Shown: positions 3,516 through 58,391 of the stretch, one piece after another
Numbering within the stretch: position 1 is the first letter of the stretch
How the letters are laid out: the number at the start of each line of letters is the position of its first letter
NCBI GenBank assembly: GCA_041576975.1
Contig: JBFGJY010000002.1
Location: 32,187-96,186 of the forward strand
DNA: 64,000 bases
From: Gammaproteobacteria bacterium
GTDB taxonomy: Bacteria > Pseudomonadota > Gammaproteobacteria > UBA4575
Direction of reading: 5' to 3'
The notes under the pieces: model-generated
Told to the model about the DNA's origin: nothing
What the model saw: the letters and a program-made list of their open reading frames with translations, nothing else
Database searches by the model: none
Translations under genes and position numbers: made by a program

Positions 3516-4430
3516 TTAGCTTCTTTTTTCCTGTTTCGACCAAATCGCCGCTAATAAAGATCCTGATAGATTATGCCATATTGAAAAAACTGCACCAGGT
3601 AAAGCAGCAATAGGTTTGAAATATTCTGTGGCCAGTGCGACGGCTAAGCCAGAGTTTTGCATACCCACTTCAATTGCGATGGTTTTTCGTATTTTTTCAT
3701 TGTAGCCAAGCCAATAACTAAAAATATAGCCTATTACTAACCCCATTAAATTATGCAGAATAACTGCAATCATGACTATACTGACAATAGCATGAAGTTT
3801 TGGCTGATTGTTGGCAATAATTATAGCAATTATTATACATATGGCTAATACCGAGATACTAGGAAAAATGCGAATAATTAGTGCAAGTCGCTGACCAAAT
3901 GAATAATTAATTAATACTCCTAAACTCACAGGAAGCACAATAACTTTGAGCACTGTAGACATCATATTAAAGACAGGGACATCAATACTGTGGCCAAGGT
4001 AAATCCAAGTCAGTATAGGCGTGGCAACTACTGCTAATAATGTAGAGATACTTGTAAGCGCAATGGAAAGTGCGACATTACCGCGCGCTAAATAACAAAT
4101 TACATTAGATGCTGTACCTCCAGGACATGCACCTACAAGAACCATTCCTGTTAGCAACGGGATTGAAAGACTAAAAGACTTACTTATCAGCCATGCGACA
4201 AGAGGCATGATCGAATATTGTAAGATTAAACCAACAACAATGATTGATTTTAAATAAATAAGTTGGCTAAAGTCGGCAGGTTTGAGCGTTATTCCCATAC
4301 CCAGCATAACAATAGCTAATAGGTAAATGATGCTAGATTTCAATGAAATAAAAATTTGCGGAGCTAAATAAGCAATAATCGAAAGCAATACTGCCCATAA
4401 TGGGAATAAGAAATTAAAGCGTTCAAGCAT
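3516..4430 (-). CDS. Bile acid:sodium symporter (BASS/SBF) family transporter
   Basis: 304 aa with about 9-10 TM segments and SBF-like core repeats (GxxxGxxxP-rich helices). Confidence 0.7.
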   Translation of the reverse strand: MLERFNFLFPLWAVLLSIIAYLAPQIFISLKSSIIYLLAIVMLGMGITLKPADFSQLIYLKSIIVVGLILQYSIMPLVAWLISKSFSLSIPLLTGMVLVGACPGGTASNVICYLARGNVALSIALTSISTLLAVVATPILTWIYLGHSIDVPVFNMMSTVLKVIVLPVSLGVLINYSFGQRLALIIRIFPSISVLAICIIIAIIIANNQPKLHAIVSIVMIAVILHNLMGLVIGYIFSYWLGYNEKIRKTIAIEVGMQNSGLAVALATEYFKPIAALPGAVFSIWHNLSGSLLAAIWSKQEKRS

Positions 4431-48061: not shown

Positions 48062-49573
48062 CTAGCTCAGTAAACGATCGTAGTGTCGATAACTTATCGC
48101 TTCACTAAGATGTTTAATTTGGATCGTTTCTGAATGTTCTAAATCTGCGATAGTGCGCGCAAGTTTAAGGGTTCGATGATAGCCACGTGCGGATAGGCCA
48201 AGTTGCTCATAGGCGCTATCCATTAGTTTTTCACTCTCGTGATTGAGTAAACAAAATTGTTCAATTTCTTTATTGCTCATAAATGCGTTAGGTTTTTGCT
48301 GTCGATCTAGTTGACGCCGTCGAGCTTCACATACGCGCTGTTGCACATCATTACTTGTTTCAGTCTCGCTTGTCACTTGTTGACGTAACTGCTCTTTGGG
48401 CACACGTGGTACATCAATATGAATATCGATTCGATCTAATAATGGTGCAGAGATCCGCGTGCGATAACGTCTTATTTGTTCGGGTGTACAGGCGCAATTG
48501 CCATTGACATCGATATCGCAACCTTGCGGACAAGGATTCATTGCAGCAATGAGTTGAAAGCGCGCGGGGAATTGTACTTGCCGAGCCGCACGTGAAATTG
48601 CGATATGACCCGTTTCTAAAGGCTCGCGCAGTACTTCTAACACGCGACGGTCAAACTCCGTTAGTTCATCTAAAAATAACACTCCGTGATGCGCTAGTGA
48701 AATTTCGCCTGGCATCGGATACGAGCCACCCCCGACTAAGGCCACACCCGAAGCCGTATGATGCGGAGCACGAAATGGGCGAATACCCCATTGTTGATGA
48801 TCAAAGCCGCCATGGCTGATCGAATAGATCGTAGCAGATTCAATCGCTTCTTGTTCGCTGAGGGCTGGTAGTATGCTGGGCAGTCGGCTTGCGAGCATGG
48901 TTTTACCACTCCCAGGTGAACCTACCATTAGCATATTATGTCCGCCGGCGGCAGCAACCTCTAAAGCGCGTTTGCCACGACGCTGACCGCGCACATCGCT
49001 AAGGTCAAACATGTTAACGCAGTGATTAACTTCGATGGCATCGTTATAAGGTGCAATGGATTCTTGACCTGACAGATGTGTACAGATTTCTAATAGACTA
49101 TTCGATGCCAGTACCGTTGTTTGCTTGGCTAACAAGGCTTCACCACCATTATTGATGGGCACAACAATCGTGCGAGTATTCCTACCACTTGCTACCGCAG
49201 TGGGTAATACACCATGCACACTGCGTATTTGTCCGCTTAAACTAAGTTCACCAATGAATTCAAACTCATGCAGATGTTCTTGTGGTACTTGATTGGAGGC
49301 TGCCAAAATTCCTAGTGCAATTGGCAGATCAAATCTTCCACCTTCTTTAGGCAGATCAGCAGGAGCAAGATTTATTGTGATGCGACGTGTTGGAAATTGA
49401 TAGCCGGAATTTAGTAGAGCTGCGCGTACACGATCTTTACTTTCTTTTACCGCTGTTTCTGGTAGTCCAACAATCGATAAACCAGGTAAGCCATTCGAGA
49501 GATGCACTTCTACAGTAACTAAGGGTGCATCCATGCCTGTTTGTGCACGGGAAAAGACAGTAGCCAGATTCAT
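48062..49573 (-). CDS. comM: YifB/ComM-family Mg-chelatase-like AAA+ ATPase
   Basis: 503 aa. Lon-like N-terminal domain, Walker A GSPGSGKT and a ChlI-type C-terminal domain. Confidence 0.88.
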   Translation of the reverse strand: MNLATVFSRAQTGMDAPLVTVEVHLSNGLPGLSIVGLPETAVKESKDRVRAALLNSGYQFPTRRITINLAPADLPKEGGRFDLPIALGILAASNQVPQEHLHEFEFIGELSLSGQIRSVHGVLPTAVASGRNTRTIVVPINNGGEALLAKQTTVLASNSLLEICTHLSGQESIAPYNDAIEVNHCVNMFDLSDVRGQRRGKRALEVAAAGGHNMLMVGSPGSGKTMLASRLPSILPALSEQEAIESATIYSISHGGFDHQQWGIRPFRAPHHTASGVALVGGGSYPMPGEISLAHHGVLFLDELTEFDRRVLEVLREPLETGHIAISRAARQVQFPARFQLIAAMNPCPQGCDIDVNGNCACTPEQIRRYRTRISAPLLDRIDIHIDVPRVPKEQLRQQVTSETETSNDVQQRVCEARRRQLDRQQKPNAFMSNKEIEQFCLLNHESEKLMDSAYEQLGLSARGYHRTLKLARTIADLEHSETIQIKHLSEAISYRHYDRLLS

Positions 49574-49600
49574 GCAAACTTTATAGGACTTAATTAATTG

Positions 49601-49855
49601 TTATTTATTTAATATTTTTTGTTCAAGTTCTTGTATACGTTGTTCTAGTTTCTTCACCCGTTGTTGGCTTTCCGATAACATTTTAGCCTGCACATCAAAT
49701 TCTTCGCGAGTGACGAGATCAAGGCGCTGAAACACCCCTTCTGCAGCTACACGAACATTTTTTTCGAGATTTTGCTTGGCTGTTTTTAAATCATCGGGTA
49801 TTGCGGCACTAATTTTACGCACAATTTCATCAAGAGCTTGAGTATCAATTTTCAT
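49601..49855 (-). CDS. ubiK: UbiK/YqiC (BMFP) accessory factor
   Basis: About 85 aa coiled-coil protein. The likely start is MKIDTQ (49855) rather than the ORF-track start at 49870. Confidence 0.6.
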   Translation of the reverse strand: MKIDTQALDEIVRKISAAIPDDLKTAKQNLEKNVRVAAEGVFQRLDLVTREEFDVQAKMLSESQQRVKKLEQRIQELEQKILNK

Positions 49856-50024
49856 GTCATGGCACTCCATTGATTCTGAGTTCTAGTGTAACTGAATCGT
49901 TACAGATCACAGCGCACCAACTAAGCGCAGATACGGTTTAAATGAGTGCATTATTTTAGTGCAGGGAGCAATAGCGCCTCTGAAATATCTATAACACATT
50001 GTTTTTTTTATGACATAAAAGTAT

Positions 50025-50040
50025 TGGCATGCCCTGTGCA
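50025..50040 (+). promoter_or_regulatory. Sigma-54 (RpoN) promoter, -24/-12 element
   Basis: TGGCATGCCCTGTGCA compared with the consensus TGGCACG-N4-TTGCA. GG and GC are at the canonical 10-nt spacing. Lies about 50 nt upstream of the beta-barrel-glnK-amtB unit. Confidence 0.6.
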
Positions 50041-50109
50041 TTAATACAGTTTAAATATAAACAACGCGATTAATCAAGGGTGTATGTAATGAATAAGAAA
50101 CTATAGCAC

Positions 50110-50847
50110 TTGGCACTGATAATCATATTAATAGGCAGTAGTGCAGTGTTTACACAACAGGCATCAGCCTATGAGGCGACGCTTTCCGGCAATGCGGGAA
50201 TATTATCTGAATATGTTTTTAGAGGTATTACACAGGATACTGCTTCGGGTAATGGCGGTCTTGATTTAGAAGTCGGTGGCTTTTATTTGGGCAGCTGGGT
50301 TGCCGAAGTTGATACGGGTGTCGAATATGACGTCTATGCAGGTTATGTGCATGAATTTGCCAATGGATTTTACTTGGGTGCCGGTGCGACCACCTATCAA
50401 TTTTCAGATAGCTTTGCCAATGAATTCAACGAGGGCAACCTCTATGCGGGCTGGTCTAATGATATTTGGTCACTAGATTTGGAGTACACCATGGGTGACT
50501 ACAACGGAAAATTTCTGAGTGACACCCCAGATGGTATGGGGGGTTTCTTACCCGAGGGTGATGACTATACCTACTTTGCCGCTACTGGAGGTTGGAACGG
50601 TGTGTATCTAACCTATGGTGAATTCGGCGACGATGCTAAGGATGCGTTTGGTTGGCATGTTGAAGGTGGTTACACGTTCGAAGTTGGTGGATTTGAAATC
50701 ACAGGTGCCATATTACATACGGATTTAGATGATGATCCCCAAGTTTTACTGAGTGATGGTGGTTCAATATCTGATAATGATGAGACAACGGCTTATGTAA
50801 GCATTCACACCAGCTTCGACATCATGAAATGGGGAAGTGGTGGTTAA
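50110..50847 (+). CDS. Gcw_chp/TIGR02001-like outer-membrane beta-barrel protein
   Basis: Alternating aromatic/Gly beta-strand pattern with a C-terminal aromatic residue. The ATG at 50089, which has an AAGGG ribosome-binding site, is in frame but is followed by TAG at 50104-50106. The ORF as called starts at TTG 50110. Confidence 0.6.
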   Translation: MALIIILIGSSAVFTQQASAYEATLSGNAGILSEYVFRGITQDTASGNGGLDLEVGGFYLGSWVAEVDTGVEYDVYAGYVHEFANGFYLGAGATTYQFSDSFANEFNEGNLYAGWSNDIWSLDLEYTMGDYNGKFLSDTPDGMGGFLPEGDDYTYFAATGGWNGVYLTYGEFGDDAKDAFGWHVEGGYTFEVGGFEITGAILHTDLDDDPQVLLSDGGSISDNDETTAYVSIHTSFDIMKWGSGG

Positions 50848-50947
50848 TACCTAAAGCAAAAAACCATGCCAATTTATGTGGCACGGTCATTTCGCAACAT
50901 TAAATAAAATATGAGTTTAGAAAAATCAAACAGTTCTAATTTCATAA

Positions 50948-51328
<381 letters not shown>

Positions 51329-51360
51329 TAATAAATAAATTCCTTTAGGAGGGTAATAAA

Positions 51361-52608
51361 GTGGAATCGCAAGTTACAGAACTCGCCTACGCAGTTGATA
51401 CGTTTTACTTCTTAGTGATGGGCGCATTCGTCATGTGGATGGCTGCGGGATTTTCCATGCTAGAAGCTGGTTTAGTACGTTCAAAGAGTACAGTGGAAAT
51501 TTTAACCAAGAATATCGCTTTGTATTCTGTCGCCAGCATTATGTATATGCTTGTCGGTTACAACATCATGTATCCCGGTGTTGGCGTTAGTGCGTTTTGG
51601 CCAGGCATAAGTTTCTTTTTGGGAGGCGACAACACCGCTGAGGGTGTAATTGCCAGTGGTGGTGACACCTATTATTCGAATCTTTCAGATTTCTTTTTTC
51701 AGGTTGTATTCGTAGCTACTGCGATGTCCATTGTTTCTGGCGCAGTGGCTGAACGCATGAAATTGTGGTCATTCTTGCTGTTTGCAGTCGTAATGTGTGG
51801 CTTCATTTATCCCATGCAGGGCTATTGGAAATGGGGTGGTGGATTTTTGGATCAAAATGGATTCTTAGATTTCGCTGGGTCCGGGGTTGTGCACTTAACT
51901 GGTGCTTGCGCGGCAATTGCTGGAGTAATTTTACTTGGAGCACGCAAAGGGAAATATACGTCGGATGGAAAAGTGGTCGCAATTCCCGGAGCCAATTTAC
52001 CTTTGGCGACCTTGGGCACCTTCATTCTATGGTTAGGGTGGTTTGGCTTTAATGGTGGTTCCGAACTAAAAGTCTCCGATGTGGGAGAGGCCAATGCCGT
52101 GGCCATGATATTCGTCAATACCAATGCTGCAGCTGCAGGTGGTGTGATTGCAGCATTGATCGCCGCGCGTCTGGCATTCGGCAAAGCTGATTTGTCTATG
52201 GCATTAAATGGTGCAATCGCAGGCTTAGTGGCGATCACTGCTGAACCGCTTACCCCAACTCCAGGGTGGGCAACCATGATTGGTGCAGTCGGTGGTGTGC
52301 TGGTTGTATTTAGTGTTGTGTTGTTAGACAAGATGAAGATTGACGACCCAGTCGGTGCGATCTCTGCACATGGTACCGTCGGCATTTGGGGTCTTCTTGC
52401 CGTTTGCATCACAAATGAAGAAGCAGCCCTCACTGCACAATTACTTGGGATTGTAGTGATCTTTATGTGGGTGTTTGTGGTCAGTTTAATCGCCTGGGGA
52501 ATTATTAAAGTCATTATGGGAATCCGTATTAGTGAAGAAGATGAAGAATTGGGTGCGGATTATTCCGAGTGTGGCATGGAGGCTTATCCAGAGTTTGTGA
52601 TTAAGTAG
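51361..52608 (+). CDS. amtB: Ammonium transporter AmtB
   Basis: 415 aa, 11 TM, Amt family. GTG start after an AGGAGG ribosome-binding site. Confidence 0.9.
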   Translation: MESQVTELAYAVDTFYFLVMGAFVMWMAAGFSMLEAGLVRSKSTVEILTKNIALYSVASIMYMLVGYNIMYPGVGVSAFWPGISFFLGGDNTAEGVIASGGDTYYSNLSDFFFQVVFVATAMSIVSGAVAERMKLWSFLLFAVVMCGFIYPMQGYWKWGGGFLDQNGFLDFAGSGVVHLTGACAAIAGVILLGARKGKYTSDGKVVAIPGANLPLATLGTFILWLGWFGFNGGSELKVSDVGEANAVAMIFVNTNAAAAGGVIAALIAARLAFGKADLSMALNGAIAGLVAITAEPLTPTPGWATMIGAVGGVLVVFSVVLLDKMKIDDPVGAISAHGTVGIWGLLAVCITNEEAALTAQLLGIVVIFMWVFVVSLIAWGIIKVIMGIRISEEDEELGADYSECGMEAYPEFVIK

Positions 52609-52687
52609 ATATTCCTCCTCAACTCAATTTTGAGCATGCACGCGAATGCAAGTTTAAAATAAGGGTTATATACTTAACACAGTGCTT

Positions 52688-52718
52688 GAGCGCCTTCTTT
52701 GTGGAGGCGCTTTTTTTA
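52688..52718. terminator. Rho-independent terminator after amtB (shared with the convergent speE)
   Basis: agcgcc-ttctttgtgg-aggcgct hairpin followed by TTTTTTT. Confidence 0.65.
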
Positions 52719-52723
52719 TGCAA

Positions 52724-55594: not shown

Positions 55595-56452
55595 ATGCTA
55601 GCCCAAATTGTTTTAATACTTGCACTATTATTAATTTTAGTTGGCATGATCATGGTGTTGTTAGATGCCTTTTCGGAGAGTTTTATTTGGGGTTTATTGG
55701 TTTTATTGCTGGTGCCGATTTTTGGCCCAATATATTCTTTTGTTAAGTGGCATAAAGACCAAGCGCGCAATGGTTTTGCGATGAGTTTAGTAGGTGTCGT
55801 GTTGGTAGTTGCTGGTATCTATGGTGGTGGTGTACATAGTATACCTGGCTTAGGTAATCAAGAAATTGTAAAAAACCTGCCTAGCGCATTGCCACCCGCT
55901 GAACCGTTATCCAATGAAGAAGCTGCTGCAAAGATTGAAATAGAAGATGATGGTGAGTATGACCCTATTCTAAGTACTAACAAAGATAGATATTCGACTA
56001 AAGAAATTGAACCCTTAGCTCCAAAAGAAGATAAAACTGTAAAACACGCTGTTCGCACGAAGGTCCGCAAAATTCCATTGAGTATTGAAGATGTAGATTT
56101 ATCTATTGGTTCTAATGTTGAAGTTGTATTTGTAGATGGTGCAACAAAACGTGGGCGGTTAATTGCTAGCGCAGAGGATTCGATTTCGTTAGAGGAACAA
56201 AAAAGTGGAGGTATGGTTTCATTCGAACATAAATTTGAAAAAATAAAATCAATTGTATTACTAATCGACCCCAGTGCAGCCCCACCGCCACCAGTAGTTA
56301 AAAAACAAGATCCGGTGTCAAAGCCAGGCGCAAGTGTTGAAACTACTGTATCCAAAGAACTGGTTACACCCGAGCACGAGACTAGCCTTACTCCTCCGAC
56401 ACTTGAACAACAAGCACCGAATAAGCCTCGTTCTGAAACAAATTCTTATTAG
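55595..56452 (+). CDS. Hypothetical membrane protein (285 aa): 3 N-terminal TM, central beta-rich domain, Pro-rich C-terminus
   Basis: Starts 33 nt after the speA stop and is probably co-transcribed. No recognised family. Confidence 0.5.
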   Translation: MLAQIVLILALLLILVGMIMVLLDAFSESFIWGLLVLLLVPIFGPIYSFVKWHKDQARNGFAMSLVGVVLVVAGIYGGGVHSIPGLGNQEIVKNLPSALPPAEPLSNEEAAAKIEIEDDGEYDPILSTNKDRYSTKEIEPLAPKEDKTVKHAVRTKVRKIPLSIEDVDLSIGSNVEVVFVDGATKRGRLIASAEDSISLEEQKSGGMVSFEHKFEKIKSIVLLIDPSAAPPPPVVKKQDPVSKPGASVETTVSKELVTPEHETSLTPPTLEQQAPNKPRSETNSY

Positions 56453-57194: not shown

Positions 57195-58391
57195 CTAGAG
57201 TTTGAACATCGACTTACTAGCTCGTCGTAACTCAATTAGAATATCTTTTTGTAGTTGATCAAGTTCAGCAATTTTAGATTCAGCTGCACCACTTAACCAA
57301 GCTGTTGCAGTGTTTTTCTTCTTGGTAAAGTAATTTAAGATAAATTGTTCTGACATTAATACAAATTTAATAGCTTTTTCTGGATCGACTTGTATAAATG
57401 GATTTTGTGCAATTTGTAAAGCAGAAGCTTCTTGTGCTGCGCAGAACTTATTTAATAAATAGTATAGAGATATTCGAGCATGTCGTAATGAGTTGATAAC
57501 GCGTTGTTTTGATTCCTCATTTAAACTTGCTTCAACGATGGCATCAAGCCATAAGATTAGATCGTTCTCTGAAATAACTACTTCACTAGCTTTGATTTCA
57601 TTGACTAAATCATAAATTCGTTGTTGCACTTCTTTAGTTTCATCTTTAGTTTGCTTGCGCTTCATGGTGCGTTTCCACAACGTTTGCGCTTCTTGCAGAT
57701 CTGCTCGCAAAATATCAAGCTCTTGCTGTTTTTGTTGAATAGTTTCTTCACGTGTTTCAATAAGCTTGCGCTTTTGGTGAATGGCACGTGCTAATACTTT
57801 CAGGCGTAAAATATAATATTCAGATAAAATTTTACCTATAGAAGCCGTTTGTTTGCGCAGTAGCCCTATAGAGGTTTTAAATCGTTTAGTATCGTCGTCA
57901 TTTATAGGCTTGACATTTTCAAGATTCGCCAGGCTTTCATGTAGATGAATTGTTTCACTTCTCACATCTATTAATAAATTATTAATTGCATTGATGTGTT
58001 TAACAAACGTTGTATTTCCTACTTTTCTTGTTCCGCGCTGTGCGGATTGCAACATGTCTACTAGTAAAAGGATTTTGTTTTTAAAGACCCGTAAATTAGC
58101 TGATCCTGTGGTTGTTTTGGCTTTATCCAATGCAACAACAAGCTGATCGCCATAGGTATCTTGATCCCGCATGCGGCGTTTTAGATGAAAAGAGTTTGCC
58201 GCCATAATTAGATCATCGACTGCACTGCGTGAAGCCATCGGTATTTTTTCACTGATATCAGCAGGAATATTGTTAGGCAGTTGTTCAATAGGCAGTTCAG
58301 AGATGCGAGCAGGCGGAAGCGTCTGCAACAGTTTTAGAAACTGCTGCAACGATAATGGTGCTTGAATTTCCGTATTGGTTTGTGCATTCAT
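57195..58391 (-). CDS. Hypothetical coiled-coil protein (398 aa), no recognisable catalytic motif
   Basis: Long heptad-rich, charged, alpha-helical sequence. Convergent with the speA-linked operon. Confidence 0.55.
   Translation of the reverse strand: MNAQTNTEIQAPLSLQQFLKLLQTLPPARISELPIEQLPNNIPADISEKIPMASRSAVDDLIMAANSFHLKRRMRDQDTYGDQLVVALDKAKTTTGSANLRVFKNKILLLVDMLQSAQRGTRKVGNTTFVKHINAINNLLIDVRSETIHLHESLANLENVKPINDDDTKRFKTSIGLLRKQTASIGKILSEYYILRLKVLARAIHQKRKLIETREETIQQKQQELDILRADLQEAQTLWKRTMKRKQTKDETKEVQQRIYDLVNEIKASEVVISENDLILWLDAIVEASLNEESKQRVINSLRHARISLYYLLNKFCAAQEASALQIAQNPFIQVDPEKAIKFVLMSEQFILNYFTKKKNTATAWLSGAAESKIAELDQLQKDILIELRRASKSMFKL

Follow-up and report, generated by a model that had tools for sequence, protein, structure and literature searches.

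In Escherichia coli the glnK promoter is strictly dependent on phosphorylated NtrC and sigma-54, the product of rpoN (PMC3870243). The window analyzed here, a stretch of 64,000 nucleotides (nt) of contig JBFGJY010000002.1 from an uncultured marine gammaproteobacterium, resembles the E. coli glnK-amtB locus in that it contains the same gene pair and a putative -24/-12 promoter with GG-N10-GC spacing, as well as NtrC-type dyads located about 100-130 base pairs (bp) from the transcription start and about three helical turns apart (PMC3870243). It differs from E. coli in that a 252-codon gene for a porin of the TorF/Gcw_chp family is the first cistron and the sole sigma-54 motif lies upstream of this porin gene, where dependence on RpoN and NtrC is suggested by the motifs. 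Further differences are a hairpin lacking a U-tract between the porin gene and glnK and an AmtB of the marine subtype TIGR03644. In the window, codon 6 of the porin gene is an amber codon (Q6*), which almost certainly represents a natural, recombined polymorphism carried by about 50% of the sampled genomes rather than a private lesion.

Two further groups of described systems bear on this allele. Like the restarts in lacI and T4 rIIB, it combines an early stop with an in-frame TTG within 3 nt and a functional Shine-Dalgarno (SD) sequence and ATG upstream, but it is a natural allele at about 50% and not a laboratory mutant, and its predicted product would have to function without the positively charged N-terminal region (n-region) of its signal peptide. 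Similar to loss alleles of surface proteins, for instance of phage receptors, it consists of one nonsense change in the gene of an exposed outer-membrane protein, at intermediate frequency and decoupled from its background by recombination, whereas here the gene heads an operon with downstream genes that should be sensitive to polarity. With respect to the protein family, the porin exceeds the curated cut-offs of both PF09694 (Gcw_chp; 35.9 for the open reading frame (ORF) of the window, cut-off 24) and TIGR02001 ('TorF family putative porin'; 67.3 for the intact allele, cut-off 47.15), and its native form would share with the family an N-terminal Sec-type signal peptide, in addition to a length of about 230-250 amino acids (aa). 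The subfamily to which it belongs is distinct, being tied to a ubiK-porin-glnK-amtB synteny in 40 species-level genomes. A literature search on Gcw_chp, TorF and TIGR02001 and on the combination of porin, glnK and amtB retrieved neither a functional or regulatory study nor this operon layout.

A putative sigma-54 operon headed by a porin gene

The candidate promoter TGGCATGCCCTGTGCA occupies positions 50025-50040 of the forward strand, on which all features of the operon described below are also found. Direct reading of positions 49500-50500 places its GG at 50026-27 and its GC at 50038-39, and it agrees with TGGCACG-N4-TTGCW at 10 of the 12 specified positions with both GG and GC intact. The inferred transcription start is at about 50051. 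On its own the 16-mer is not enriched, since 12 matches with at most one mismatch occur in the window compared to 8.5 ± 2.9 expected, which is no excess over chance. When these 12 matches were placed on the ORF map, nine fell within long ORFs and two were intergenic with a broken GG or GC, leaving the match at 50025 as the only one that is intergenic, correctly oriented and intact at both elements. To compare the locus with its relatives, we mapped the neighboring genes of 45 loci encoding porin relatives in species-representative genomes. In 40 of them ubiK is located on the opposite strand directly upstream of the porin gene, and all 40 contain TGGCA[CT]-N5-xTGC[AT] at 55-98 nt 5' of the start codon, while the core was seen in none of the five homologue loci outside this synteny. 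In a motif-anchored alignment of 41 sequences, all distinct and with porin identities reaching as low as 38%, the -24 and -12 elements were invariant, whereas flanks and spacer retained only about 0.5 bit per column (flanks 0.49). Because the core is conserved while its surroundings diverge, this phylogenetic footprint supports the sigma-54 reading, and the near-consensus RpoN promoter that a preliminary description of the locus had placed upstream of the porin ATG holds in its coordinates as well as in its conservation.

The same description had proposed a search for NtrC enhancer sites resembling TGCACC-N5-GGTGCA, and this search revealed two paired dyads with offsets conserved in relatives. 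The distal dyad CGCACCAACTAAGCGCA (49913-49929) and the proximal dyad TGCATTATTTTAGTGCA (49947-49963), 34 bp apart and centered at about -130 and -96, each agree with 9 of the 12 specified positions, and the proximal one is the sole zero-mismatch occurrence of TGCAYY-N5-RRTGCA within the window. We take this geometry to match that of E. coli glnAp2. Most orthologous loci possess similar dyads, one centered 89-105 nt 5' of the T in TGGCA and frequently another at 55-82 nt, and in about 10 closer relatives TGCATTATTTTGGTGCA, a near-copy of the proximal dyad, is located 34 bp 3' of the distal dyad; the motif is degenerate, and NtrC as the binding protein is presumed from it. Between these sites and the promoter a T-run at 50000-50010 varies among strains (T8, T7 or TTGTTATTTT), and the A/T-rich region around it may act as a bend for enhancer-promoter looping.

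The second and third cistrons are glnK (50990-51328), which encodes a P-II family signal protein of 112 aa (PF00543, E = 8e-33) that shows no variation among 15 contigs of this species, and amtB (51361-52608, ending with TAG), which encodes an ammonium transporter of 415 aa (PF00909, E = 1e-98) scoring 667 bits against TIGR03644 (cut-off 514). The two genes, a P-II gene directly followed by an Amt-family gene, are separated by 32 nt. In 37 of the 40 ubiK-linked loci glnK follows the porin gene, and amtB comes next whenever the contig is long enough; of the other three loci, two are truncated by a contig edge and one (L018) shows no glnK in the 780 nt available. Directly 3' of the porin stop the window contains a stem-loop without U-tract (50863-50887; -12.2 kcal/mol, z-score -2.8), and no sigma-54 motif was found in the porin-glnK spacer of any locus, nor any sigma-70-like match in that of the window. 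The only strong terminator-like site (52688-52712) is located behind amtB, where a hairpin of 10 pairs (six G-C) followed by a T-run (52688-52722) closes the operon ahead of the convergent speE. Since the spacer contains no internal sigma-54 motif and its hairpin lacks a U-tract, co-transcription of porin, glnK and amtB is the simplest reading, and we consider it very likely, on the evidence of motifs and their conservation, that the three genes constitute a sigma-54/NtrC-controlled operon.

Several observations concern the spacer and amtB themselves. Hairpins of 10-14 bp but differing sequence are predicted behind the porin stop in many orthologous loci (L006-L019 and others), most clearly in closer relatives, and in a distant clade (L028-L036, L042) the spacer measures about 165-200 nt and contains two hairpins together with a CAGATTTTTATTGGTTTAAAAATTT element common to these loci. 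The stem-loop could serve as a partial terminator or 3'-end stabilizer setting the ratio of porin to GlnK and AmtB. We discarded the idea that glnK has a sigma-54 promoter of its own, since the TGGCAC at 50879-84 is part of the hairpin and the next GC is 12 and not 10 nt away from the GG. Likewise, two amino acid changes in AmtB, V64L and D74V (51550 and 51581), which are restricted to the window and L057, were dismissed as probably neutral because these positions vary freely among orthologues. In a chromosome-level metagenome-assembled genome, amtB (L026, OZ243969.1, 5160-6425) was matched as four pieces in different frames, reflecting either a frameshifted pseudogene or assembly indels.

An amber polymorphism in the porin signal peptide

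The porin gene extends over 252 native codons (50089-50847), of which 50089-50169 encode the signal peptide with cleavage between ASA and YEA. Its start in the window is a remnant, ATG AAT AAG AAA CTA TAG (50089-50106), encoding MNKKL and a stop, in which the ATG at 50089-91 is preceded by an SD sequence (AAGGGTG, 50076-50082) and the amber codon at 50104-50106 results from a C-to-T change of CAG to TAG at 50104. Three nt beyond the amber codon (TAG CAC TTG) follows a TTG (50110-50112), at which the six-frame ORF call (50110-50847) begins. This TTG has no usable SD sequence, its best anti-SD duplex amounting to -1.5 kcal/mol compared to -6.5 kcal/mol for the ATG. When the read-through protein was used as a query, a 252-aa protein (P0001) with 99% identity and the N-terminus MNKKLQHLALTIILIGSS was retrieved, and all 44 aligned orthologues open with an MNKKLQ-like, lysine-bearing n-region; in addition, re-reading the DNA of 37 other syntenic loci showed an uninterrupted N-terminus from the upstream ATG in all except L042. 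As the orthologues share this MNKKLQ-like start, translation natively begins at the ATG at 50089, and the TTG is simply the codon for Leu8 of the native protein. The elements described in the preliminary account, namely the ATG with its good ribosome-binding site, the TAG at codon 6 and an ORF call restarting at a TTG without ribosome-binding site, are thus all in place, and orthologues starting at the TTG, which would have contradicted a native start further upstream, were not encountered.

The polymorphic nature of the amber codon became evident from sequences of the same species; these, like every related sequence that we found, are consensus sequences assembled from metagenomes. Five contigs of metagenome-assembled genomes encode P0001, share 99.4-99.7% identity with the window across 2-6.5 kb and carry CAG at 50104 without exception. 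A look-up of identical GlnK proteins yielded further contigs of this species, several of them with a 233-aa porin call starting from a GTG inside the signal peptide, and the DNA of the contigs with this call showed the same TAG. Altogether TAG was found in seven sequences (the window, L051, L052, L053, L057, L059 and L063), each from a separate assembly accession, and CAG in eight (L001-L005, L058, L064 and L066), at nucleotide identities of 99.4-99.9%. The protein cluster record gave a comparable picture, with 252-aa forms on 5 + 3 contigs and truncated forms on 3 + 3 + 1 + 1 (8 versus 8); it also includes a 245-aa NCBI product identical to the ORF of the window (P0060), located on a contig of 122,667 bp. 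Look-ups for exact copies of this 245-aa product and of the AmtB of the window gave no hit. Neither the 245-aa call from the TTG nor the 233-aa call from the GTG uses the native start, and both conceal the lesion. A scan of metagenome contigs of the Joint Genome Institute (JGI) with a 34-nt stretch spanning the polymorphism (Y at 50104) gave no match.

Two further changes accompany the amber codon. Codon 11 in the hydrophobic core of the signal peptide (50119-50121) is ATA (Ile) in the window and ACA (Thr) in all CAG-allele strains, and this T11I change (C-to-T at 50120), 16 bp from the amber codon, is fully linked to TAG (7/7 versus 0/8). The SD sequence reads AAGGGAG in all CAG-allele strains, and the A-to-T change at 50081 occurs in six of the seven TAG haplotypes and in none of the eight CAG haplotypes, reducing the anti-SD duplex from -7.9 to -6.5 kcal/mol; the remaining TAG haplotype, L053, is recombinant for this site. 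Three linked single-nucleotide polymorphisms (SNPs) within 40 bp, at about one segregating site per 80 bp, are mildly unusual, and we do not count them as significant. The SD variant also generates an in-frame GTG at 50080, and ATGTAATG (50080-50091) contains a two-codon start-stop, ATG TAA (50085-90), that overlaps the porin ATG.

Beyond these three linked sites the sequences do not fall into a TAG and a CAG group, and the window differs from the CAG-allele sequence L004, for example, at a single site. All four gamete combinations were seen between TAG and sites 50013, 50417, 50505 and 50963, which shows that the TAG allele has recombined with positions as close as 91 bp on its 5' side and 313 bp on its 3' side. 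The occurrence of all four gametes with flanking sites therefore means that the TAG allele is old relative to recombination and resides in a block of less than about 400 bp. Compared with the intact orthologues and the eight same-species sequences beginning with MNKKLQ, Q6* is a disabling lesion of the kind expected in a pseudogene. Otherwise each of the seven TAG haplotypes has an undamaged gene, with neither further stops nor frameshifts, and the changes specific to the TAG class comprise one synonymous singleton and one F243C singleton (L063). Of the three explanations initially considered for the amber codon, a genuine nonsense mutation is thus borne out by the comparison of orthologues and related strains, whereas a sequencing error is excluded by the recurrence of the TAG and its linked SNPs in six further independent assemblies.

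Restart, loss or readthrough

According to the mechanism that we propose, 50025-52722 would operate as a three-gene nitrogen-limitation operon with one sigma-54 promoter activated from two upstream NtrC-type sites, and the acidic 12-stranded outer-membrane barrel would provide a route selective for NH4+, or another cationic nitrogen compound, toward AmtB. Q6* would eliminate the normal full-length precursor with its MNKK n-region. Ribosomes would load at the retained SD and ATG, translate MNKKL and terminate, and a fraction of them would restart at the TTG 3 nt further on, giving rise to a product, MALIIILIGSSAVFTQQASA followed by the mature YEA end, whose signal peptide would lack the charged n-region and possess a more hydrophobic core. 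The supply of porin would consequently be reduced but not zero, and the frame of about 740 nt would be kept occupied by ribosomes, so that glnK and amtB would be spared from polarity. Such sparing of glnK-amtB would explain how an otherwise polar allele reached about 50%.

The geometry of the locus is that expected for a restart, in which the stop of a translated upstream frame lies very close to the next start codon (gap of 3 nt, SD and ATG retained). In E. coli, termination-reinitiation proceeds with 30-95% efficiency at a gap of +2 nt and is lost by 80-100% at 38 nt, and long untranslated transcripts are unstable (PMC10666635). The signal peptide of the predicted TTG product contains neither Lys nor Arg, and its best 9-residue Kyte-Doolittle mean is 3.21 with I11 compared to 2.63 with Thr. 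Sec export is slowed but not abolished when the n-region loses its charge, an effect that increased hydrophobicity of the core can offset; Hikita and Mizushima reportedly showed in 1992 that a longer or more hydrophobic core can compensate for lost positive charge of the n-region in Sec signal peptides. Judged from the sequence, we give a leaky allele maintained by restart slightly less than an even chance. The more elaborate possibility that the amber allele represents a maintained 'low-porin' state, in which a balanced polymorphism tunes an NH4+-selective channel and exposure to phage or host via reinitiation at TTG 50110 and T11I is compensatory for Sec export, appears rather unlikely.

A number of points weigh against this interpretation. 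We infer the TTG restart from its geometry alone, the linkage between T11I and TAG is expected from their distance of 16 bp, residue 11 varies (A, V, T) in orthologues, and the SD change slightly weakens the ribosome loading that a restart would need. In L063 (GCA_041575215.1) a private T-to-G change at the equivalent of position 50816 produces F243C, and F243, within the last beta-strand, is invariant in 44 aligned family members, which may be an early hint that constraint on the amber allele has been relaxed, as expected for a null. Moreover, at a population diversity of about 0.3-0.5%, which is too low for a test of nonsynonymous to synonymous substitution rates (dN/dS), the intact downstream ORF is compatible with a leaky allele and with a null of recent origin alike. 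With regard to the operon and the channel, rpoN and ntrBC were not found within the 64-kb window, and high acidity is common among marine proteins.

Nearly as likely as the restart-leaky allele is a true null, in which the porin is abolished because restart is negligible or the precursor without n-region is not exported; its intermediate frequency would then result from neutrality of a dispensable porin, or from a loss of the surface protein that is sometimes favored (phage or predator receptor, host recognition) at the expense of poorer ammonium scavenging. Loss-of-function polymorphisms of surface proteins are indeed common in marine bacteria under phage pressure, and a stop at codon 6 followed by a TTG without SD, a linked SD change that weakens initiation instead of strengthening it, and the private F243C at an invariant residue are all in line with a null. 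The frequency of about one-half, the short linkage block and the shuffled backgrounds would fit balancing selection or a gene-specific sweep. In the L042 lineage (CBDHFH010000003.1), too, the N-terminus of the glnK-linked porin is disrupted (4001-4140): a stop at 4074 interrupts the frame, the ORF does not start before 4083, and a signal peptide is missing. This may be a second independent inactivation or a long-read indel error, and the same genome contains a second homologue (L030) that is not linked to glnK-amtB and was matched over residues 1-246. However, in a null about 740 nt of ribosome-free message 5' of glnK would invite Rho-dependent polarity and messenger RNA decay, as in model bacteria (PMC10666635), and this polarity would hit glnK and amtB, which have no sigma-54 motif of their own and no sigma-70-like match in the spacer of the window. 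Additional disabling lesions are also absent from the seven TAG haplotypes, and the gap of 3 nt between stop and TTG falls in the range permitting reinitiation.

In comparison, readthrough as the main route, by which a suppressor transfer RNA (tRNA) or a near-cognate tRNA-Gln would decode UAG and restore the Gln6 protein, is highly improbable. The ancestral codon is CAG, so that near-cognate insertion of Gln would regenerate the native sequence, the remainder of the gene is intact, and the amber codon is followed by C, a context (TAG C) in which termination is comparatively weak in E. coli. Basal near-cognate readthrough, however, is normally well below 1%, and an efficient suppressor would be costly, given that TAG terminates 14 of the 50 long ORFs of the window, including amtB of the same operon (TAA 27, TGA 9). 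This usage led us to reject a reassignment of TAG in the genetic code and renders the tolerated readthrough considered in the preliminary description unlikely; furthermore, ARAGORN found no tRNA gene and Rfam no family in the window, so neither a suppressor nor a riboswitch can be invoked from it. The suspicion of an artefact, that is, of a TAG produced by sequencing or assembly error and/or of a sigma-54 match by chance, could draw on the consensus nature of the metagenome assemblies and on the unremarkable frequency of the 16-mer, but it is effectively refuted by the same TAG and T11I in six other independent assemblies, by the recombinant L053 and by a promoter core that stays invariant over 41 sequences while its surroundings do not.

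The porin, its distribution and its possible role

An AlphaFold2 model built from a 44-sequence alignment (mean predicted local distance difference test score, pLDDT, 79; predicted template modeling score, pTM, 0.74) shows an N-terminal helix that corresponds to the signal peptide and, behind it, an all-beta barrel with 12 strands resembling the monomeric barrels of KdgM and NanC. This likeness is one of fold only, as sequence identity to these proteins is 6-15% and the porin does not fall into the KdgM Pfam family; no Pfam family other than PF09694 was reported for it at E ≤ 0.001. The 225 residues of the mature porin include 38 Asp and Glu and only 4 Lys and Arg (net charge -34), and the 44 orthologues have net charges between -32 and -45. 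While KdgM and NanC conduct acidic sugars, the charge of the modeled barrel points to the opposite, cationic selectivity. Because the barrel is small, intensely anionic and apparently co-regulated with AmtB, it is most simply read as a channel with cation selectivity that would supply AmtB with NH4+ or a related nitrogen compound. The earlier suggestion of a nitrogen-limitation porin is consistent with the conserved synteny, the KdgM/NanC-like 12-strand model and the extreme acidity.

A profile search found the glnK-linked porin subfamily almost solely in uncultured marine Gammaproteobacteria, and among the homologues found in cultured strains the nearest one, from Aestuariibacter sp. with 43% identity, does not adjoin glnK-amtB. 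Locus L018 (CAXMUG010000076.1) is labelled 'uncultured Mycobacterium sp.', but it shows the gammaproteobacterial ubiK-porin layout and the sigma-54 motif together with a short porin ORF (219 aa), and is probably mis-binned. In the window, the genes upstream of the porin on the opposite strand are a BMFP/UbiK-like gene, which scores below the NCBIfam UbiK cut-off, and a comM/yifB-like gene of the Mg-chelatase family. Elsewhere in the window, two ORFs of 398 aa (57195-58391, reverse strand) and 285 aa (55595-56452, forward strand) matched no Pfam family at E ≤ 1e-10, the latter being hydrophobic at its N-terminus and ending in a proline-rich tail of low complexity.

In summary, the sigma-54/NtrC regulation is that of enterobacterial glnK-amtB and is not new, and the layout looks like a variant of this known operon, in which a dedicated TorF-family porin gene is the first cistron behind the sole sigma-54 promoter in about 40 species. 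Early nonsense codons with restarts and loss polymorphisms of surface proteins are each known as well, and the amber allele would be a natural example combining both if the restart is confirmed. The intact and amber alleles, each present in about half of the sequences on shuffled backgrounds, represent a natural two-allele experiment on the importance of the porin, on polarity and on restart. Although its mechanism is ordinary, the finding is of moderate interest because it offers a lead to what PF09694 (TorF/Gcw_chp) does, a family which gains a specific and testable role as a hypothetical NH4+ channel feeding AmtB in seawater with nanomolar ammonium. If the low-porin reading is true, this would be the first function assigned to this TorF/Gcw_chp subfamily, that of an outer-membrane partner of AmtB.

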